A stretch of 64,000 nt of DNA from the NCBI GenBank assembly GCA_963777605.1, contig CAVZRV010000008.1, positions 288,001 through 352,000 of the forward strand. Reading direction: 5' to 3'. The DNA is from an uncultured Acidobacteriota bacterium (lineage in GTDB: Bacteria > Acidobacteriota > UBA6911 > RPQK01 > JAPXNP01). The position numbers and the translations under genes are program-made. Numbering within the stretch: position 1 is the first letter of the stretch; each line of letters begins with the position of its first letter. Below the pieces are notes generated by a model that saw only the letters and a list, made by a program, of their open reading frames with translations, searched no databases and was not told the origin of the DNA. Positions 4,497 to 49,074 of the stretch are shown here, one piece after another.

Positions 4497-5750
4497 ATGA
4501 GTCATTCCAATCGACGAGATTTTCTCGGCGGAATTGCCATGGCCGGCGCCGCGGGCGCCCTCAACGCAAATGCCCAGCCGGGCGATGCTGTTCGAGGTCC
4601 ACTGCAGGATGGCTCATTTGACCGAAAGGTCTGGATTGAAGTTGCCACCAGGCTGGCCTATCCGGTGCTCGAAAACCTGGCCCGCGGGGAATTTTCGAAG
4701 AAGTTCCCGGCCGAGGGGGAACGTGCCCCGTTTGCCGCCCTGGAAACGTTTGGCAGGCTCATGTGCGGAGTCGCTCCGTGGATTGAACTCGGAGGCGACG
4801 GCAGCGAAGAAGGGAATCAGCGGGTCCACACGGCTCTGCTCGCCCGAACGGCTCTGGCGATGGCAGTTGATCCCAACTCCCCCGATTTCATGAACTTCAC
4901 CAAGGGAGCCCAGCCCCTGGTCGATGCCGCCTTCCTGGCCCAGGCAGTGCTGCGGGCGCCGGTTCAGCTCTGGCAGGGACTCGATGGACGGACGCAGGGG
5001 AACCTGATCACTGCCCTGCTCTCCACTCGCTCGATCATTCCCTACCAGAACAACTGGCTGCTGTTCAGCGCCATGATCGAAGCCCTTCTCTACAAGCTTG
5101 GCCTTCAGGCCGACCTGATGCGGATCGATCTTGCACTCCGCACGATGGAAAGCTGGTACCTGGGGGATGGAATCTACGGGGATGGACCAGATTTCCACTG
5201 GGACTACTACAACAGCTACGTGATCCAGCCCTTCATGCTCGACATCTTTGAAGCCGTCCAGTACGTTGGCCGGGATTTGCCGGGTCGCTATGCCCTGGCC
5301 CGAAAGATCTCCTCACGCTACGCCGCCATCCAGGAGCGGTTGATCTCACCCGAAGGCACCTACCCTCCCATTGGGCGGTCGATCGTTTACCGGTTCGGGG
5401 CTTTCCAGCTCCTTTCCCAGATGGCCCTCCGAAATGAACTGCCTCCCGGGGTCAGCCCCGCCCAGGTACGAAGTGGCCTGACCGCGGTCATTCGTCGCCA
5501 GATGTCGGCACCGGGCACGTTCGACGACGCGGGGTGGCTGAATATCGGGTTCGCCGGGAACCAGCCTTCCCTGGGAGAGGGATACATTTCGAGGGGAAGC
5601 GGCTACCTCTGCGCCGCCGGGTTGCTCGCACTCGGACTTCCCGCGTCCCACCCGTTCTGGTCCGGTCCTGGACAGCCATGGACCGCTCTCAAAATGTGGT
5701 CCGGTCAGGACATGCCCCGCGATATCGGCCTCTACGGACGAAACCCCTAG
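4497..5750 (+). CDS. Tat-exported DUF2264-family protein
   Basis: NRRDFLGG Tat motif; LETFGR, QPLVDAAFLA, NNWLLF, YGDG..FHWDYYNSYVI and GRSIVYR motifs. Confidence 0.8.
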   Translation: MSHSNRRDFLGGIAMAGAAGALNANAQPGDAVRGPLQDGSFDRKVWIEVATRLAYPVLENLARGEFSKKFPAEGERAPFAALETFGRLMCGVAPWIELGGDGSEEGNQRVHTALLARTALAMAVDPNSPDFMNFTKGAQPLVDAAFLAQAVLRAPVQLWQGLDGRTQGNLITALLSTRSIIPYQNNWLLFSAMIEALLYKLGLQADLMRIDLALRTMESWYLGDGIYGDGPDFHWDYYNSYVIQPFMLDIFEAVQYVGRDLPGRYALARKISSRYAAIQERLISPEGTYPPIGRSIVYRFGAFQLLSQMALRNELPPGVSPAQVRSGLTAVIRRQMSAPGTFDDAGWLNIGFAGNQPSLGEGYISRGSGYLCAAGLLALGLPASHPFWSGPGQPWTALKMWSGQDMPRDIGLYGRNP

Positions 5751-41286: not shown

Positions 41287-41394
41287 GGAAATCTTTCCTT
41301 CCGCAGGAGTTGTTGAGCAAAATTCTACCCCACAAGGTACACCCTTTGAATCTTCCGCGCGTAGCGGGAGGGGCGCCGCTGACCTGAAACTTCA

Positions 41395-41764
41395 ATTTGG
41401 ATGAACTGGAAGAACTGGATGATTTGGACGCGTTTGGATGGGAATTCGGGCGATCGGTGGAGAGCCAGGGACGTGATTATCGGCTGGATCCTGGTTCCGG
41501 GTCCGGTGCCAGACGTGGATGAGTGATGATCACAGGATCGGCGCCGGACTGGCCCCTGAAGGGGGCCTGTTTCCAGCCCAGGCATTTGCCTGGGTTCACG
41601 GCCCACCCATCAAGAATCCAGCCCTGAAAGGGCGGCACAGCTCTCCGGACGTGAAGAATCGGCGCGACCTTACAGGCCGCAATCGAAATGCAGGACCACA
41701 AACCCAGGGAAAGCCCTGGGCTGGAACCAGGGCGCCTTCCAGCGCCATGAAGCCCGGCGTCGCC
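41395..41764. repeat. Cassette type A (REP/BIME-like palindrome cluster); further copies 41823-42181, 43400-43754, 47849-48205; noisy copy 47449-47791
   Basis: Near-identical units of about 360 bp with hairpins GGCCCCTGAAGGGGGCC, AGCCCAGGCATTTGCCTGGGTT, GCCCTGAAAGGGC and CCCAGGG.AAGCCCTGGG. Confidence 0.85.
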
Positions 41765-42749
41765 AGTTTCACTCTTTGAATGGTCCGGCGGCGGCCGGGG
41801 GCGGGGCTGACTTGAAACTTCATTCGAGATGAGTTGGAAGAACCTGGACGAATTGGATGCGTCTGGACGGGGATTCGGGCGATCGGTGGAGAGCCAGGGA
41901 CGTGATTATCGGCTGGATCCTGGTTCCGGGTCCGGTGCCAGACGTGGATGAGTGATGATCACGGGATCGGCGCCGGACTGGCCCCTGAAGGGGGCCTGTT
42001 TCCAGCCCAGGCATTTGCCTGGGTTTACGGTCCACCCATCAAGAATCCAGCCCTGAAAGGGCGGCACAGCTCTCCGGACGTGAAGAATCGGCGCGACCTT
42101 ACAGGCCGCGATCGCCTTGCCGGGACCACAGACCCAGGGCAAGCCCTGGGCTGAAACCAAGGCGCCTCCAGCGCCAGGTCCAGTTTCACTGATTGAATGG
42201 TCCGGCGCCGCCGGGGGCGGGGCTGACTTGAAACTTCAATCGAGATGAGTTCCTGGTTCCTGGTTTCTCGTTTCTGGAGGGAAAGTAATCCAGGCATCCC
42301 TGCCTGATATGGCGGCCGGGCAAGCTTGCCCGGCGGAAGTCAACCTTCTCAATCCCAGGTTTATTGATTTCCGGGTTCTTCTGAAATCAGTCCGCCACCG
42401 GGACTGAATCGCACTTTCAGTGCTGCATTGCCGTCTTGGCTCCGATTCCCGGGGCGTTGCCGCCGGGCTGGAAATGACCCTGCGCCGTTGGCGCGCTCAT
42501 CTGGCGATGCTTCACCCGTTTCACTGATTGAATGGTCCGGCGCCGCCGGGGGCGGGGCTGACCTGAAACTTCAATCTCGGCAATTCCGCTAACTCTTGTA
42601 TTCTGTGAGAGATGCTGCTGCCGCTGAGAACAGCGAGTGGCGAGAAAAAAGTCGTCTATCGAGCCGTTTGAGCGTGATGGGGACACCACGCCCAATCTCC
42701 GCGAATCCGCATGAGCAGGCTTTTCAAAAGGGGCATGAACGGTGGCCCG

Positions 42750-42903
42750 GGGTGGCTGTCTGAATGGTCTATTCTGACCTTGAGGAGTGCTCCAAGAGCC
42801 TCACTAATGAATGATCGCACAGCCCGGGACCAAGCTGACTTTGGGGCAAAAATGCGCCAGTGCCTCGAGGGTCTTAACTGCCACTGCTCATGCCGCGCAG
42901 TGG
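42750..42903 (-). ncRNA. Candidate stand-alone bridge-RNA-like RNA (cassette type B); copies at about 43160-43310 and 43969-44060 (partial)
   Basis: Colinear homology with the IS110 upstream non-coding region 45563-45710; own promoter; no convincing ORF. Confidence 0.6.
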
Positions 42904-42932
42904 ATTTTAATCGATTGATGCGGCCGCGGCAA
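42904..42932 (-). promoter_or_regulatory. sigma70 promoter TTGCCG-17-TAAAAT for the type-B RNA
   Basis: Plus-strand CGGCAA 42927-42932 and ATTTTA 42904-42909; repeated at 44061-44088 with a 16-nt spacer. Confidence 0.65.
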
Positions 42933-43790
42933 GTTTCACTCTTTGAATGGTCCGGCGGCGCACGACTGACCTGAAACTTCAATCTTGGGCAATTCCGCTA
43001 ACTCTTGTATTCTGTAGAGATGCCTGCCGCTGAGAACAGCGAGTGGTGAGAAAAAGTCATTCTATATCAAGAGCCGTTTGACGTGATGGGGACACCACGC
43101 CCAATACTCCGCAAATGCCATGAGCAGGCTTTTCAAAAGGGGCATGAACGGTGGCCCGGGGTGGCTGTCTGAATGGTCTATTCTGACCCTTTGAGAGATC
43201 TGAGCTAATGGAATTTGATCGCACAGCCCGGGACCAAGCTGACTTTGGGGCGAAAAAATGCACAGTGCCTCAGAGGGTCTTGACTGCCACTGCTGATGCC
43301 GCGCGGTGGAGGCTTAATGGATTAGATGGGGCCGGGCCAAGTTTCACACACCTGAAATGGTCCGGAGCGCCCGGGGAGCGGGGCTGACTTGAAACTTCAA
43401 TCGAGATGAGTTGAAGAGTCTGGATGATTTGGACGCGTCTGGACGGGAATTCGGGCGATCGGTGGAGAGCCAGGGACGCGATTATCGGCTGGATCCTGGT
43501 TCCTGGTCCGGTGCCAGACGTGGATGAGTGAAGATCACAGGATCGGCGCCGGGCTGGCCCCTGAAGGGGGCCTGTTTCCAGCCCAGGCATTTGCCTGGGT
43601 TTACGGTTCCCCCATCAAGAATCCAGCCCTGAAAGGGCGGCACAGCTCTCCGGACGTGAAGAATCGGCGCGACCTTACAGGCCGCGATCGAGTTGCGGGA
43701 CCACAGACCCAGGGCAAGCCCTGGGCTGAAACCAAGGCGCCCAGCGCCAGGTCCGTTTCACTCTCTGAAGGATCCGCGGAGGGCGCGGGG

Positions 43791-43968
<178 letters not shown>

Positions 43969-44141
43969 ATGATCGACAGCTCGGGACCAAGCTGACTTTG
44001 GGGCAAAAACGCGCCAGTGCCTCGAGGGTCTTAACTGCCACTGCTCATGCCGCGCAGTGGATTTTAGTCGATTGATGCGGCGCGGCAAGTTTCACTCTCT
44101 GAATGATCCGGCGCCGCCGGGGGCCGGGCTGACTTGAAACT

Positions 44142-45518
44142 TCATCCTTGGACCTCCACCGGAACCAGTTTGTAGCCCATGGTTTGGGCCGTGCTGGTGA
44201 GGGACTGGAACCGTTTGAGCCGGTAGCGTGCTTCGTAGGCTTCGGCGCCTTCGTCGACATAGTCCTGACCGAAGCGGAGCATGCGGTAGATGTACTGAGC
44301 CAGTTTGCGGGCGGTGGCGAAGACGGCGGTGCCCCCTCCTTTGCGTCGGGCGATGTGGCGGAAGTAGGCTCCCATCGCCGACTGCGAATGTTTCAGGGAC
44401 AGCGCGGCCATCCTCAGGACATTGGCCACGCGGGTGGAGCCGGTGCCCTGGCGCCGTTTGCGCAGGGGTTTGCCGGCGGAGTAGGCGGTCTTTGGACTCA
44501 GTCGCAGCCAGGACACGAAGTGCTTTTCGACCGGAAACGCCGACAGATCCAGGCCGATCTCGCTGAGGATGAGTTGGGCCGCCGGCGCAGCGATGCCGTC
44601 GATCCGGGTCAGGTCCACGCCGGTCACCCGCCACAGCATCGTGCGTCGCTGCTGCTCTCCCCGTTTGTTCAGCGCCCGCTCCTTGGTGGGCTGGGGATGG
44701 GGCCCCGGCTCCTGATCGGCTCGGTCGCTCGCCTCGAGTCGGTGGAGCACGCGTCCGATCTCCTCGTCATAGTCGGCCAGTTGACCCTGCACGAAGTCAT
44801 ACCACTCCAACGCTTTGCCCAGGTTGAACAGGTGTTCCTCCCGCCACGTCCCCGTCAGATGCTCCGCTATTTTGGCTTCCGACTTCCGACAGCGCCGGTC
44901 CCGCAAAGCCGCCAGTCGAAACGGATCCCGTTCGCCGCCGACCATCGCCCGCACGATCGCCATTCCGGTCTGTCCCGTCAGATCCGTCACCGCCCGGTGC
45001 ACCTGCACGTTCATCTGGTCGAGCGCCTTCTGCATCATCTGCACCGCCTGCCCCGCCAGCCTCACCAGTCCGGCCCGCTCCCGCTCGAGCGCCCGCAACT
45101 GACAGATCGCTTCGGCGGGTCGGAACGATCCCCGCAGCAAACCACAACTGTGCAGCAACTGGATCCACTGGCAATCCTTGATGTCGGTCTTGCGGCCCGG
45201 GACGTACTTCAACTGCCGCGCATTGACCAGCACCACTTCGAATCCCCGCGACACCAACAGCTCGTACAGCGGGATCCAGTACACCCCGGTCGCTTCCATC
45301 GCCACCGATTCGATCCTGTCGGCCTCGAGTCGGTCCAATACCAACTCCAACTCCGGTGTCGTCGTCCCAAAACAAAGGACCTTCAACTGGCCCGTCTCCC
45401 GATCGGGCCAACACCCGGCGCTTTCGCACGAACCCAGATCGATTCCCGCCACCCGCTCCCGGATCACTCGCAAATCCTGTTGACGCTTCCGACTTCTCGA
45501 CTTCCGCTTCGATCTCAT
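44142..45518 (-). CDS. IS110-family DEDD recombinase/transposase, copy 1 (458 aa)
   Basis: GIDLG / AMEATG / KTDIKD (D-E-D-D), C-terminal SAGK serine motif, ATARKLA; AGGAGG RBS; stop codon lies inside the array repeat. Confidence 0.95.
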   Translation of the reverse strand: MRSKRKSRSRKRQQDLRVIRERVAGIDLGSCESAGCWPDRETGQLKVLCFGTTTPELELVLDRLEADRIESVAMEATGVYWIPLYELLVSRGFEVVLVNARQLKYVPGRKTDIKDCQWIQLLHSCGLLRGSFRPAEAICQLRALERERAGLVRLAGQAVQMMQKALDQMNVQVHRAVTDLTGQTGMAIVRAMVGGERDPFRLAALRDRRCRKSEAKIAEHLTGTWREEHLFNLGKALEWYDFVQGQLADYDEEIGRVLHRLEASDRADQEPGPHPQPTKERALNKRGEQQRRTMLWRVTGVDLTRIDGIAAPAAQLILSEIGLDLSAFPVEKHFVSWLRLSPKTAYSAGKPLRKRRQGTGSTRVANVLRMAALSLKHSQSAMGAYFRHIARRKGGGTAVFATARKLAQYIYRMLRFGQDYVDEGAEAYEARYRLKRFQSLTSTAQTMGYKLVPVEVQG

Positions 45519-45559
45519 GCTAGCTTTGTCCTCCTGGTGAATCGGCACAGGCTCGGGCT

Positions 45560-45710
45560 CGAGGTGGCGTGAATTTGGATTCTGACTTCGGGGAGTGCCC
45601 TGAGCGGCCTCGCCAATGAATGATCGCCTCACTCGAAACCAGGCTGACTTTGGGGCAACATGCTCCAGTGCACAACGGGTCTGAACTGCCCGGGCCTGTG
45701 CCGAACGCAA
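45560..45710 (-). ncRNA. Candidate IS110 bridge RNA (upstream non-coding region); duplicate at about 47212-47362
   Basis: 220-nt non-coding region upstream of the recombinase, where IS110-group elements such as IS621 encode their bridge RNA; TATGCT -10 at 45710-45715; several hairpins; boundaries approximate. Confidence 0.65.
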
Positions 45711-45793
45711 GCATAGCCGACTCTCGCAGGCTTGGCTCAGTTTCACTCTCTGAATGGTCCGGCGGCGGCCGGGGGCGGGGCTGACTTGAAACT

Positions 45794-47170
45794 TCATCCT
45801 TGGACCTCCACCGGAACCAGTTTGTAGCCCATGGTTTGGGCCGTGCTGGTGAGGGACTGGAACCGTTTGAGCCGGTAGCGTGCTTCGTAGGCTTCGGCGC
45901 CTTCGTCGACATAGTCCTGACCGAAGCGGAGCATGCGGTAGATGTACTGAGCCAGTTTGCGGGCGGTGGCGAAGACGGCGGTGCCCCCTCCTTTGCGTCG
46001 GGCGATGTGGCGGAAGTAGGCTCCCATCGCCGACTGCGAATGTTTCAGGGACAGCGCGGCCATCCTCAGGACATTGGCCACGCGGGTGGAGCCGGTGCCC
46101 TGGCGCCGTTTGCGCAGGGGTTTGCCGGCGGAGTAGGCGGTCTTTGGACTCAGTCGCAGCCAGGACACGAAGTGCTTTTCGACCGGAAACGCCGACAGAT
46201 CCAGGCCGATCTCGCTGAGGATGAGTTGGGCCGCCGGCGCAGCGATGCCGTCGATCCGGGTCAGGTCCACGCCGGTCACCCGCCACAGCATCGTGCGTCG
46301 CTGCTGCTCTCCCCGTTTGTTCAGCGCCCGCTCCTTGGTGGGCTGGGGATGGGGCCCCGGCTCCTGATCGGCTCGGTCGCTCGCCTCGAGTCGGTGGAGC
46401 ACGCGTCCGATCTCCTCGTCATAGTCGGCCAGTTGACCCTGCACGAAGTCATACCACTCCAACGCTTTGCCCAGGTTGAACAGGTGTTCCTCCCGCCACG
46501 TCCCCGTCAGATGCTCCGCTATTTTGGCTTCCGACTTCCGACAGCGCCGGTCCCGCAAAGCCGCCAGTCGAAACGGATCCCGTTCGCCGCCGACCATCGC
46601 CCGCACGATCGCCATTCCGGTCTGTCCCGTCAGATCCGTCACCGCCCGGTGCACCTGCACGTTCATCTGGTCGAGCGCCTTCTGCATCATCTGCACCGCC
46701 TGCCCCGCCAGCCTCACCAGTCCGGCCCGCTCCCGCTCGAGCGCCCGCAACTGACAGATCGCTTCGGCGGGTCGGAACGATCCCCGCAGCAAACCACAAC
46801 TGTGCAGCAACTGGATCCACTGGCAATCCTTGATGTCGGTCTTGCGGCCCGGGACGTACTTCAACTGCCGCGCATTGACCAGCACCACTTCGAATCCCCG
46901 CGACACCAACAGCTCGTACAGCGGGATCCAGTACACCCCGGTCGCTTCCATCGCCACCGATTCGATCCTGTCGGCCTCGAGTCGGTCCAATACCAACTCC
47001 AACTCCGGTGTCGTCGTCCCAAAACAAAGGACCTTCAACTGGCCCGTCTCCCGATCGGGCCAACACCCGGCGCTTTCGCACGAACCCAGATCGATTCCCG
47101 CCACCCGCTCCCGGATCACTCGCAAACCCTGTTGACGCTTCCGACTTCTCGACTTCCGCTTCGATCTCAT
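45794..47170 (-). CDS. IS110-family DEDD recombinase/transposase, copy 2 (458 aa)
   Basis: Tandem duplicate at 1652-bp period; only protein difference seen is QQDLR versus QQGLR near the N-terminus. Confidence 0.93.
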   Translation of the reverse strand: MRSKRKSRSRKRQQGLRVIRERVAGIDLGSCESAGCWPDRETGQLKVLCFGTTTPELELVLDRLEADRIESVAMEATGVYWIPLYELLVSRGFEVVLVNARQLKYVPGRKTDIKDCQWIQLLHSCGLLRGSFRPAEAICQLRALERERAGLVRLAGQAVQMMQKALDQMNVQVHRAVTDLTGQTGMAIVRAMVGGERDPFRLAALRDRRCRKSEAKIAEHLTGTWREEHLFNLGKALEWYDFVQGQLADYDEEIGRVLHRLEASDRADQEPGPHPQPTKERALNKRGEQQRRTMLWRVTGVDLTRIDGIAAPAAQLILSEIGLDLSAFPVEKHFVSWLRLSPKTAYSAGKPLRKRRQGTGSTRVANVLRMAALSLKHSQSAMGAYFRHIARRKGGGTAVFATARKLAQYIYRMLRFGQDYVDEGAEAYEARYRLKRFQSLTSTAQTMGYKLVPVEVQG

Positions 47171-48562
47171 GCTAGCTTTGTCCTCCTGGTGAATCGGCAC
47201 AGGCTCGGGCTCGAGGTGGCGTGAATTTGGATTCTGACTTCGGGGAGTGCCCTGAGCGGCCTCGCCAATGAATGATCGCCTCACTCGAAACCAGGCTGAC
47301 TTTGGGGCAACATGCTCCAGTGCACAACGGGTCTGAACTGCCCGGGCCTGTGCCGAACGCAAGCATAGCCGACTCTCGCAGGCTTGGCTCAGTTTCACTC
47401 TCTGAATGGTCCGGCGGCGGCCGGGGGCGGGGCTGACTTGAAACTTCAATCGAGATGAATTGAAGACCTAACACTTGTATTCTCGTTTCTGGAGAGATTA
47501 TTATTGAGGCATCTGGGCCAGGACGTGATTATTTCGGCTGGATCTGGTTGGTAAGGTGACTGGATGAGTGATATTTTAACAGATCGGCCAAAAGGGCCCC
47601 TAAAGGGGGCCTGTTCTTCAGGATTTACTGGGTTCTTTTTTTATCGGCTTCCACTCATCAAGAATCAGCGCTGAAAGTGCTGAACAATGCCATCTCGGAC
47701 GAATGAGAATCAGAGGGAGACTTAGCCGCACAGCCGAGAAAAAAGACTCAGTGAAGCCCTTTGATAGCGCTGAACTGGGGAAGTTTCACCAAGTTTCACT
47801 CTTTGAATGATCCGGCGCCGCCAGAATTAAGACTGACTTGAAACTTCAAAATGGATGACTGGAAGAACCTGGATGATTTGGACGCGTTTGGATGGGAATT
47901 CGGGCGATCGGTGGAGAGCCAGGGACGTGATTATCGGCTGGATCCTGGTTCCGGGTCCGGTGCCAGACGTGGATGAGTGATGATCACAGGATCGGCGCCG
48001 GACTGGCCCCTGAAGGGGGCCTGTTTCCAGCCCAGGCATTTGCCTGGGTTCACGGCCCACCCATCAAGAATCCAGCCCTGAAAGGGCGGCACAGCTCTCC
48101 GGACGTGAAGAATCGGCGCGACCTTACAGGCCGCGATCGCCTTGCCGGGACCACAGACCCAAGGCAAGCCCTGGGCTGAAACCAAGGCGCCTCAGCGCCA
48201 GGTCGAGTTTCACTCTCTGAATGGTCCGGCGGCGCCGGGGGCGCGGCTGACTTGAAACTTCAATTTGGATGAACTGGAAATCCTGGATGATTTGGACGCG
48301 TCTGGATGGAGATTCGGGCGATCGGTGGAACTCAGAAGCCTGGTTCTCGGCTGGATCCTGGATACCCCGATTTCAGAACGCGAGTGTCAGCGAGCGCGGC
48401 TCCGGGCGATGGTGAGTCAGCGGAAGTGCTGCCGGAGGCCGGAACCGCGGGATGGAGTCAAGATCCGAGGTGGGCGATGGATGAAGGCCTGGATACGCGC
48501 GCGCTGACTTGCGTACTGAATGCGTGAAAACCGCGATCCCGGGCCGGAGTTGGCAAGCTTCA

Positions 48563-49074
48563 CTATTCGAATGATCCCCGCAGCGCGGAATCACTGGAAC
48601 CCGCCTGAAACTCGGGATCGATCGTCGCGAAATGGAGCAGGTCAAAGAATCCCAGGCGAAGCTGCTTCAACGCAAAGCTCAAGGCGATCAGCGGAAGGGT
48701 CGCGGATACCAGCAAAGTAATCCAGAATGCGGTTGGAATCTGGATTGTGCCCTGGATCGAATCGAGGATCACTAGACTGGCACCAAGTGTCAGGACCCAA
48801 TATGCCCATAAGAGAAGGCGCTTCCAGTGGCTCGAGGCCGCAGGAGTCGTGTCACGTGCCAAGGCGGCCTCAAGTTCCTGGTCAAACTGGGGAGAGAGGT
48901 GGGGAACGGGAAGCGCTGCCAAGCTTGGGCCAGTTCCTGGTGACCGAAAAGAGTATCCCGGCACTGATCGCAGATCTCGAGATGGGACTCCCATTGCCTG
49001 CGCTCTTCGCCCGATTTGAATGCTCCTTCGAAGAACCGCTCAATCTGGCCCAGGCTGGGGCAGTACTTATCCAT
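48563..49074 (-). CDS. zf-HC2 anti-sigma factor with C-terminal membrane helices, frameshifted near 48920
   Basis: HLEICDQC (HxxxCxxC) in 48790..49074; PQFDQEL and hydrophobic helices in 48563..48994. Confidence 0.7.

Follow-up and report, generated by a model that had tools for sequence, protein, structure and literature searches.

A probable head-to-tail chain of autonomous and MITE-like IS110-family elements in the genome of an uncultured member of the Acidobacteriota

A stretch of 64,000 nucleotides from an uncultured member of the Acidobacteriota (assembly GCA_963777605.1, contig CAVZRV010000008.1, here C8, positions 288,001 to 352,000; the whole stretch is termed the window) contains, between positions 41335 and 48612, an array of short and long units bounded by one recurring sequence. 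We consider it probable that this locus is a head-to-tail chain of elements of the IS110 family of insertion sequences (IS), consisting of a single autonomous type that is present as a tandem pair and of types A, B, C and D that resemble MITEs (miniature inverted-repeat transposable elements). Judged from its sequence, the repeat is the junction between consecutive IS110-type elements, i.e., 14 nt of the right end of one element, a CT core and about 45-50 nt of the left end of the next element including a GC hairpin. The anatomy of the array, its homology to related elements, the covariation of guide segments in a bridge-RNA-like RNA and the spread of the units over the genome are directly observed, and recombination presumably takes place at the junction.

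The repeat (GTTTCACTCTYTGAATGRTCCGGCG..GC-rich..CTGACYTGAAACTTCA, approximately 58-64 bp) is present in direct orientation in 13 copies that bound 12 units, as established by repeat search combined with direct reading. Eleven are good copies, while the first and the last are degenerate. An nhmmer profile built from the 11 window copies and used for the window as well as for the whole assembly yielded 12 matches between 41335 and 48266 (C8 329335-336266); the thirteenth copy (about 48554-48612) was recognized only by eye. Taken together, these are the 13 direct copies of a repeat of about 58 bp described in an earlier note on this DNA. Annotation by BLAST gave the unit order A-A-C-B-B-A-B' (truncated)-IS-IS-A' (69% to A)-A-D, which is exactly the order of the earlier note, and the recombinase gene is indeed a single unit within a larger set that shares one boundary sequence. 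From repeat start to repeat start the spacings are 428, 417, 335, 415, 409, 414, 333, 1651, 1652, 401 and 414 bp, such that small units are spaced by 333-428 bp and the two long ones by 1651/1652 bp. Near-identical 60-mers occurring 12 times within 7 kb exclude chance. The individual features are the following (window positions, evidence in brackets):

41335-41398, minus strand: degenerate left-end-like repeat copy closing the array on the low-coordinate side (nhmmer, E 1.9e-6; C8 329335-329398)
41399-42179, minus strand: two A units with bodies of about 354 bp and a repeat copy, 41763-41826, between them (BLAST, 93% and 100% to the A reference; repeat matches)
42180-42577, minus strand: repeat, C unit (body 42243-42514) and repeat (profile matches, BLAST)
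42578-43338, minus strand: two B units, left end plus bridge-RNA homolog without recombinase gene (alignment to the upstream region of the IS)
42739-42937 and 43148-43345, minus strand: matches of B to covariance model R1 (147 and 79 bits)
43339-43793, minus strand: variant repeat, A unit and a repeat copy truncated past its core (profile, BLAST, reading)
43792-43969, no strand: homopolymer run, 161 T and then 17 G, in place of about 290 bp (Tandem Repeats Finder, sequence)
43970-44130, minus strand: 3' part of a third B unit with a partial bridge-RNA match, 43974-44093 (BLAST, covariance model)
44086-44148, minus strand: repeat copy beside the third B unit, core CT 44129-44130 (BLAST, reading)
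44131-45780, minus strand: IS copy 1, core CT 45781-45782 (Pfam, homology with relatives, reading)
44131-44144, minus strand: right end of IS copy 1, GACTTGAAACTTCA, containing the TGA stop (homology with relatives, reading)
44142-45518, minus strand: recombinase open reading frame (ORF) of IS copy 1 (Pfam)
45551-45744, minus strand: bridge-RNA-like region of IS copy 1, whose left end runs up to 45780 (model R1, 139.5 bits)
45783-47432, minus strand: IS copy 2 with ORF 45794-47170, bridge-RNA-like region 47203-47396 and core CT 47433-47434
47435-48266, minus strand: diverged A' (69% to A) and an A unit, with repeat copies at 47790-47850 and 48204-48266 (profile, BLAST)
48267-48612, minus strand: D unit and degenerate left-end copy, about 48554-48612 (BLAST, reading)

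Both IS units are 1,652 bp in length, 99.9% identical (one base apart) and carry an intact ORF for 458 amino acids on the minus strand. The N-terminal part of the recombinase matches the RuvC-like Pfam domain DEDD_Tnp_IS110 (PF01548, E 1.1e-20, residues 24-169) and its C-terminal part Transposase_20 (PF02371, the IS116/IS110/IS902 domain, E 6.3e-10, residues 303-386). The TGA stop falls within the first bases of the repeat, and about 220 nt of non-coding sequence lie between the start codon and the next repeat. PF01548 is matched only four times in the whole 6.7-Mb assembly, namely by the pair in the window and by a second pair on contig C24. Membership in the IS110 family is indicated by the presence of both domains, by a 2-nt core at both junctions without terminal inverted repeats or long target duplication, by the same AG/CT core at both ends of multi-copy relatives and by a structured RNA, the loop segments of which match and covary with target and donor half-sites. 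According to the domain scan, the only recombinase found inside the array is of the DEDD type; no search aimed at intI was made.

Homologs of the recombinase (E<=1e-30) are encoded in none of 15 genomes of the same family and in nine of 45 genomes of the same order (tallies including the unpublished G018). Relatives with many copies reside in a metagenome-assembled genome (MAG) of the Bryobacterales (CBDCOC01; 58% amino acid identity, more than 50 IS copies) and in a MAG of the Planctomycetota (OZ245006; 51% identity, about 20 IS copies). In both genomes the IS is a discrete element of approximately 1.67 kb; in a comparison of 24 and 11 copies, respectively, the interior was 100% identical and the surrounding sequence dissimilar. 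The left end of the Bryobacterales IS, about 50 nt long, is located inside the element and does not vary from copy to copy, whereas the left flanks are unrelated. It is the left end (..CCAGTCGCGCCCCCGGGCGGGGCCCGGATCATTCGGTTGGAAAC) and the right end (..GTGTTTCACACC-AG) of these relatives that align with the two parts of the window repeat. Read on the recombinase strand, the window repeat is TGAAGTTTCAAGTC-AG-CCCCGCCCCCGGCCGCCGCCGGACCATTCAGAGAGTGAAAC, the Bryobacterales left end starts with ..AG followed by (CC AG)TCGCGCCCCCGGGCGGGGCCCGGATCATTCGGTTGGAAAC, and the right end finishes with ..GGGTGTTTCACACC-AG; the landmarks GTTTCA, AG, GC hairpin, GGAyCATTC and GAAAC are common to the window repeat and the Bryobacterales ends and follow each other in the same order. 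On the same strand, the junction thus delimited comprises a right end ...GAAGTTTCA(A/G)GTC, the core AG (CT on the plus strand) and a left end CCCCGCCCCCGG..hairpin..CCGGACCATTCAGAGAGTGAAAC. The repeat left of IS copy 1 and the repeat between the two IS copies differ exclusively in the left-end part, which would place the crossover within CTGACTTGAAACTTCA. That the boundary is the recombinase's own recombination site follows from this homology to the ends of multi-copy relatives; the guide segments described below match the boundary as well.

Settings comparable to that in the window are also found elsewhere. In G029, G056 and G057 (52-56% identity) each IS examined is located between right-end-like and left-end-like sequence, while G047 and G056 contain a second, partial IS copy within a few kb. 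Together with the Bryobacterales genome, G029, G056 and G057 speak against the possibility, named in the earlier note as a ground for abandoning the idea, that homologous recombinases never sit in such arrays. In the Planctomycetota genome the IS inserts into a palindrome (GGCTCCGATTCATCACCCGGCG.CGCCGGGTGATGAATCGGAGCC; flanks of L055-L075) that resembles repetitive extragenic palindromic (REP) sequences; this corresponds to classical IS110 REP targeting, with target and donor half-sites that differ.

A search of the remaining genome, recommended in the earlier note, revealed that the repeat is not special to this locus. In total, 155 profile matches are distributed over 25+ contigs of the 6.7-Mb assembly and form 144 clusters, inside each of which orientation is mostly uniform. 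The core is CT in 123 of 139 mapped left-end junctions. A right-end-like 14-mer follows next in 69 of these 139 left ends (chain junctions), and for the other 70 the adjoining flank has the consensus GACYTGRAA (G in 53, A in 57 and C in 50 of 70), which is again right-end sequence. The GC hairpin abuts the CT core in the left end as well as in sequences beside which the IS inserted. Scanning with the right-end motif and two mismatches was too permissive (366 matches) and did not reveal a consensus in the sequence before the core.

Among the relatives, the recombinase gene is preceded by homologous non-coding sequence. Eight homologs from six genomes were aligned, i.e., those of the present IS, B, two variants from G029, G056, G057 and the Bryobacterales and Planctomycetota elements, and the RNAalifold consensus features an outer stem and two internal-loop domains with 34 pairs, 11 of which show compensatory changes. 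Two segments of 8 nt terminate in the AG core; the first, guide 1, is the same as the element's left flank, and the second, guide 2, the same as its right end. Guide 2 agrees with the own right end at five of five variable positions in all eight elements (mean for non-cognate combinations 2.9), and guide 1 agrees with the own left flank at a mean of 4.75 of five (non-cognate mean 2.5). Where flank and right end are not the same (G056, Bryobacterales, Planctomycetota), each guide fits its own partner only, with five matches vs. three, three and two. In the IS of the window, guide 1 and guide 2 are identical at the variable positions (AAGTC-AG). As judged from these comparisons, the upstream RNA, which is presumably expressed, appears to follow the bridge-RNA logic established for IS621, with reservations regarding partner guides and loop side that are considered below. 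An Rfam search over 40.5-49.5 kb returned only two chance-level matches (a microRNA and a Plasmodium RNA) and neither a CRISPR-type nor another family.

The proposed mechanism is as follows. The IS encodes a DEDD/serine recombinase together with a predicted upstream bridge-RNA-like RNA with two internal-loop domains, one loop segment corresponding to the left target flank plus core and the other to the right end of the element itself, again including the core. Any resident element would then present, in its right end and the adjoining core, a full match to the target-side guide. New copies would integrate directly behind old ones in head-to-tail arrangement and remake the junction each time, local tandem duplication would add further copies, and non-autonomous elements would be mobilised in trans by the single recombinase locus. 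As guide 1 equals guide 2, every right end would itself be a target, and chains would result. With integration behind a resident element, the dimeric IS, the uniform orientation of the units and the 69 junctions within chains would be accounted for, and a right end acting as target would explain, in part, the right-end-like flanks of solo left ends. The earlier note's proposal of a recombinase able to move the units among which it lies is thus the preferred interpretation.

Units of type B are about 76% identical to the left end and RNA region of the IS and lack the gene. With a covariance model derived from eight homologs, 12 matches were obtained in the genome, four of them IS and eight B, such that all eight B units match; they reside on C8, C24, C21 and C51. 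Across these four contigs the B copies are 99-100% alike, unlike the older A family, which suggests recent movement. Guide 2 of B reads AGGTC-AG and the right end is of the C type (CTGACC..) in seven of seven cases; guide 2 of the IS reads AAGTC-AG and the right end is of the T type in four of four. The donor-side segment of B fits a second right-end variant (GACCTGAAAC), which is present in roughly half of the elements of types A, C and D. Both right-end types occur in these families, with counts of 23/16 for A, 15/9 for C and 3/6 for D.

Recombinase-less RNA units also occur in the Bryobacterales genome. Locus L011 consists of an IS, five units of about 346-438 bp, another IS and one terminal (repeat) unit of 75 bp. 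Fourteen such units in six of 14 loci searched match, at 117 bits and over the full length, the RNA model, in which the Bryobacterales genome was represented solely by its IS RNA. The guides of IS and unit are exchanged, the IS having AAAGCCAG and then AACACCAG and the unit AACACCAG and then TAAGCCAG, i.e., AAGCC-AG then ACACC-AG in the IS and ACACC-AG then AAGCC-AG in the unit, while the scaffold is otherwise kept. In 57 Bryobacterales loci, 68 left ends are followed by IS sequence and 19 left-end-like copies by something else, and the last 75 bp of the IS are matched 144 times. We regard it as a possibility, albeit a rather improbable one, that B and the analogous Bryobacterales units are not passive passengers and instead are mobile genes for alternative bridge RNAs acting in trans on a single recombinase.

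Some further observations concern the Bryobacterales loci. Chains of units of 346-438 bp, composed of a left-end copy and a full bridge-RNA homolog without recombinase gene, are located directly upstream of IS copies at L011:1750-5470, L038:2000-3950 and L042:1340-3950. A third RNA variant with the guides AGGTT-AG and ACACT-AG is present at L042:1404-1588 (129 bits). In 13 of 30 listed IS copies (L004-L036, locus 5393-5480) one or two extra copies of the element's own last 75 bp or so follow. These tandem terminal units of about 75 bp keep the right-end match only, as is stated for repeat units in the accessible part of a 2026 preprint (10.64898/2026.08.14.744561).

At a cover of at least 70%, the genome contains 49 copies of A, 35 of C, 8 of D and 7 of B. 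Stand-alone copies of A have the structure flank-CT-GACYTGAAACTTCA...body...GTTTCAC..hairpin..-CT-flank. The small elements resemble MITEs in that their termini are close to both ends of the autonomous element, in that they are small (bodies of about 94-354 bp) and devoid of a recombinase gene, and in that they occur at many unrelated loci; A, B, C and D would be moved in trans by the one recombinase locus. Further families with the same ends are E (body about 94 nt, ending ..ccgggggtaaggcgaagccgcgcccccgggttcgcggacc) and F (body about 115 nt, ending ..gcggttcaaaacac.cgtggc), e.g., at C27:52453-52669, C9:33458-33668 and C10:17946-18169, and most of the apparently solo repeats are left ends of E and F. 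The A module was not found outside G000 among the 60 relatives searched, ten of which contain repeat-like matches of about 60 nt; G051 and G060, looked at for repeat-like sequences without IS110 genes, have 21 and 38 other PF01548 matches.

Copies of A exhibit a mean pairwise identity of 88%. The A units of the window array are closest to copies at other loci (95-97%), and the four adjacent A units on C24 are closest to each other (97-99.7%). Both independent insertion and local duplication appear, on these identities, to have built A arrays. Pure tandem duplication, already considered insufficient in the earlier note, was rejected because the A units of the window are closer to copies elsewhere than to each other.

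In the coding test, A and C display many 1-nt indels, which is not codon-like, and weak 3-periodicity; both look non-coding. D shares its first 80 nt or so with A. Within the first 45 nt or so of A and D a TGGAnGAnn motif recurs with a period of 9 nt (e.g., 41820-41950, 47846-47980 and 48262-48330 in the window), and in 25 of 45 A copies a frame that begins right past the right-end TGA continues for 43-46 codons before a stop, corresponding to a conserved-looking acidic peptide NF.[LW]DEL..LD.LDA..RRG without conserved start codon. This frame of A and D may be a micro-ORF, a protein-binding array or chance and is not called a gene. The body of A' (47452-47789) is AT-richer and keeps several short hairpins of A, partly via paired changes (e.g., GCCCTGAAAGGGC vs. 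GCGCTGAAAGTGC); its counterpart on C24 (4848-5190) is likewise diverged, with 79% identity to the nearest A.

The genomic distribution of the units bears on the comparison with integrons and CRISPR arrays drawn in the earlier note. A dedicated cassette platform of this kind, i.e., a fixed site gathering units for the benefit of the host, would be in line with units in the same orientation that share boundaries and adjoin a recombinase. We nevertheless consider it highly improbable, as the same families occur alone or in short chains in 144 clusters. In attC sites, the consensus is RYYYAAC for R'' and GTTRRRY for R', and the repeat ends GTTTCAC and TGAAAC fit neither, so that the boundary does not bear an attC signature. 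A CRISPR array was rejected on the grounds that the intervening units, the 'spacers', measure 270-1,590 bp and are themselves dispersed repeats found genome-wide; in addition, no CRISPR-type or other Rfam family was detected there. The comparison had therefore to be dropped.

A different explanation starts from the host genome: the repeat and A, C and D would be a family of intergenic mosaic sequences comparable to REP sequences, bacterial interspersed mosaic elements (BIMEs) or Neisseria intergenic mosaic elements (NIMEs), spread and reshuffled by means unrelated to the IS (homologous recombination, slippage or a different enzyme), and the IS110 element would merely target the repeat, its ends resembling the repeat owing to its position within it. 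IS110-family elements do insert into REP/BIME sequences, as stated in the accessible part of the report on ISPpu9 (PMC12288879). The single IS locus facing 155 repeat matches, the divergence of the A copies (88% mean), the clustering of same-type units on C24 (B B B, A A A A, IS IS), a pattern that would arise from local duplication, and the repeat-like 60-mers in other genomes of the order likewise fit this explanation. What makes it unlikely in our view is that the Bryobacterales left end homologous to the repeat belongs to the IS itself and is the same in all copies next to unrelated flanks, that solo copies of A and C possess right-end-like and left-end-like termini bounded by CT, that B units combine the IS left end with a bridge RNA, and that the guides match the boundary.

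The unit order and the tandem IS depend on a correctly assembled array. The run of 161 T and 17 G (43792-43969, unit 7), which replaces a repeat end and about 230 bp of a B unit, is probably an artefact of assembly or polishing, and because of this artefact the assembly of the array stretch is not trustworthy at face value. On C24 (13.8 kb), which is a second haplotype or strain in the bin, intact B units are present where the window shows the T/G run. This contig carries the flanks of the window array at 92% (left) and 99% (right) identity and, in the orientation of the window, the 15 units A A C B B B A A A A IS IS A' A D. The contig is evidence that both array and IS dimer exist, and, being a product of the same assembly, it is not a fully independent witness. 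On C25 (30010-34547) the array flanks occur in a third, more distant version (85-90%); as a possible empty site it was rejected, for it contains 1.2 kb of other DNA and only a right-end-like remnant. The three versions of the flanks on C8, C24 and C25 indicate that the bin mixes related strains or carries paralogous regions.

Four publicly available metagenome runs, taken from separate studies of soil, rhizosphere and wetland, contain the IS at about 98-99% identity on short-read Logan contigs of 1,644, 1,535, 1,165+505 and 1,037 nt, all of which end inside the repeat. The joints listed for these DNA runs, with sides of at most 31 nt, were left out of consideration, and no RNA run was among those listed as containing the sequence. 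For run X1, summed contig depth is about 105 in repeat bins vs. 17 in the IS, a contrast that fits a multi-copy repeat and is not a copy number. The junction sequence of a circle is the same as that of a tandem.

The array, or at least its length, order and IS dimer, might be an artefact arising from a repeat-rich, multi-strain MAG region. The T/G run, a bin contamination of 5.68%, the additional flank versions (C24 at 92-99%, C25 at 85-90%) and an array order seen in the assembly only, given that the public runs are short-read contigs, would be compatible with this. We judge it improbable, since the separately assembled C24 shows a like array at the same flanks, IS dimer included, with another unit count, since shorter chains occur on C7, C28, C29, C31 and C51, since the two IS copies differ by one base and since IS pairs and unit chains are found in relatives from other assemblies.

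Several points weigh against the chain of IS110-family elements as the explanation of the locus. First, one IS locus is opposed to more than 100 small elements; given the age of the A copies (88% mean), most of them may be remnants of earlier activity or of a different driver. Second, conservation of the flank of solo ends extends to 9 nt vs. the 7 nt matched by guide 1, so that something more contributes, be it a contact made by the protein, an effect of the GC hairpin or the decay of formerly adjacent elements. Third, homologous recombination between 60-bp repeats could also reshuffle units. Fourth, the match between right end and guide in the IS and in B reflects a single evolutionary event and counts as one comparison, not eleven, because the copies are near-identical among themselves. 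Fifth, unit order and IS tandem are derived solely from an assembly with an obvious artefact inside the array, as the public short-read contigs break inside the repeat; circles and empty sites were not observed. Sixth, partner guides, i.e., the reverse complement of the core plus the right-hand half-site or left end, were not found, there being no consistent match of at least 5 nt in ten elements. Finally, both guides are located on the 3' sides of the predicted loops, whereas in the accessible description of IS621 it is the 5' sides that contain the guides with top-strand sequence (PMC11208160).

Intergenic mosaic elements of Neisseria, in which dRS3 repeats of 20 bp bound RS units and are targeted by Piv/IS110-like recombinases, are similar to the present array in forming intergenic chains of shuffled short units split by one repeat that is a target of an IS110-like enzyme. 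To our knowledge, dRS3 is not the end junction of a recombinase element itself, and we know of no bridge-RNA units in the Neisseria mosaics.

Contrary to the earlier note, which knew of no described system with this layout, precedents exist in ISPpu9/MITEPpu9 (PMC12288879) and in a 2026 preprint (10.64898/2026.08.14.744561). As far as the accessible parts of the publications go, the closest known system is ISPpu9/MITEPpu9, of which the locus described here is a much larger version. ISPpu9 of Pseudomonas putida KT2440, reported under the term 'modular transposition' in Nucleic Acids Research in 2025, has a left box A of 43 bp with an inverted repeat and a right box B of 16 bp and recombines at AG (PMC12288879). 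Its ssr9 RNA module with A'/B' boxes, registered as MITEPpu9, is located behind the recombinase gene in five of seven copies, alone at three sites and in tandem in sister strains (PMC12288879). Circles consisting of tnp alone, of tnp plus ssr9 and of ssr9 alone are formed by recombination between A/A' and B/B' (PMC12288879). Ssr9 is complementary to an antisense RNA of the tnp 5' untranslated region (PMC12288879), from which we infer a paralogous relationship to the bridge-RNA region, as in the case of B.

Both systems thus have a non-coding module that carries near-copies of the IS boxes, stands head-to-tail behind the recombinase gene and is also found alone elsewhere, and both have a core AG on the recombinase strand. 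In the accessible text on ISPpu9, one module type with eight copies is described, whereas the present genome has at least six families (A-F), 155 junction or end matches and chains of up to 12-15 units with one IS locus. Furthermore, ISPpu9 targets REPs that are unlike its own ends, while target half-site and donor half-site are the same here. The present system belongs to a host of the Acidobacteriota instead of Pseudomonas and is known from sequence alone. A protein of 830 amino acids encoded near the array has its best matches (58% or less) in MAGs of the Vicinamibacteria/Acidobacteriota, a weak indication that the host is an acidobacterial soil bacterium.

The preprint on 'expanded IS110 loci' (Hu et al., 10.64898/2026.08.14.744561), in its accessible part, describes non-coding units repeated in tandem next to IS110 recombinase genes (n=468) as well as IS110 modules duplicated in tandem as a whole (n=437). 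According to this work and to that on half-match recombination (Xie et al., 10.64898/2026.08.31.748434), one half-match to the donor is retained at the boundaries of units, partial circles are integrated anew at other sites and target immunity does not exist, again as given in the accessible parts (10.64898/2026.08.14.744561, 10.64898/2026.08.31.748434). Growth at single loci is described in the accessible sections of Hu et al., in contrast to the genome-wide free-standing mini-elements and the bridge-RNA-only units with guides of their own reported here. The terms 'MITE' and 'non-autonomous' are absent from the accessible main text of Hu et al. (10.64898/2026.08.14.744561), supplements being outside the scope of this statement. 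A literature search for non-autonomous, MITE, orphan or stand-alone bridge-RNA elements yielded nothing closer than these papers among the matches listed.

IS621, as characterized in the accessible part of PMC11208160, possesses a DEDD/Ser recombinase and an upstream structured RNA, two loops of which, including the core, match target and donor. The IS of the window is similar with regard to its 2-nt core, the missing long duplication and a predicted two-loop RNA with core-containing segments. It differs in the core on the recombinase strand (AG vs. CT), in the length of the recombinase (458 vs. 326 amino acids) and in that the two recognisable guides are on the 3' sides of the predicted loops and partner guides were not found. 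For ISPpu10, the accessible text describes a 'dual-match' mode in which a GC-rich stem-loop beside the base-paired target acts in recognition (10.64898/2026.03.19.712850). The GC hairpin abutting the CT core here is similar, and its role in recognition is putative.

What goes beyond the published cases is the scale, with at least six families and 155 ends for one recombinase locus, the identity of target half-site and donor half-site, and the mobile units containing only a bridge RNA, the guides of which are altered (here) or exchanged (Bryobacterales). Bridge recombinases are being studied intensively as programmable tools for rearranging genomes, and the natural growth, excision and site choice of IS110 elements have been an open question in 2025-26. 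The locus and its Bryobacterales relative offer a compact natural case, in which one recombinase gene is accompanied by many end-only elements, some of these elements contain a bridge-RNA paralog of their own in which the guides are altered or exchanged, and chains would build themselves owing to the identity of target and donor half-sites. A right end of 14 nt, a CT core, a left end of about 50 nt and two RNA variants provide substrates for studies of trans-mobilisation, of trans-acting bridge RNA and of directionality set by the RNA. With regard to annotation, a REP-like dispersed repeat family of an acidobacterial genome is made up of IS110 end junctions. If the recombinase-less units indeed serve as genes for alternative bridge RNAs and if the partner guides have not moved, an RNA with exchanged guides would find its full match in both chromosomal junctions that bound an inserted element instead of in circle and target, and would direct excision or a reordering of units. 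In that event, the chains would constitute a naturally occurring multi-guide recombination platform, with RNA modules determining the elements to be moved as well as their destination and direction.

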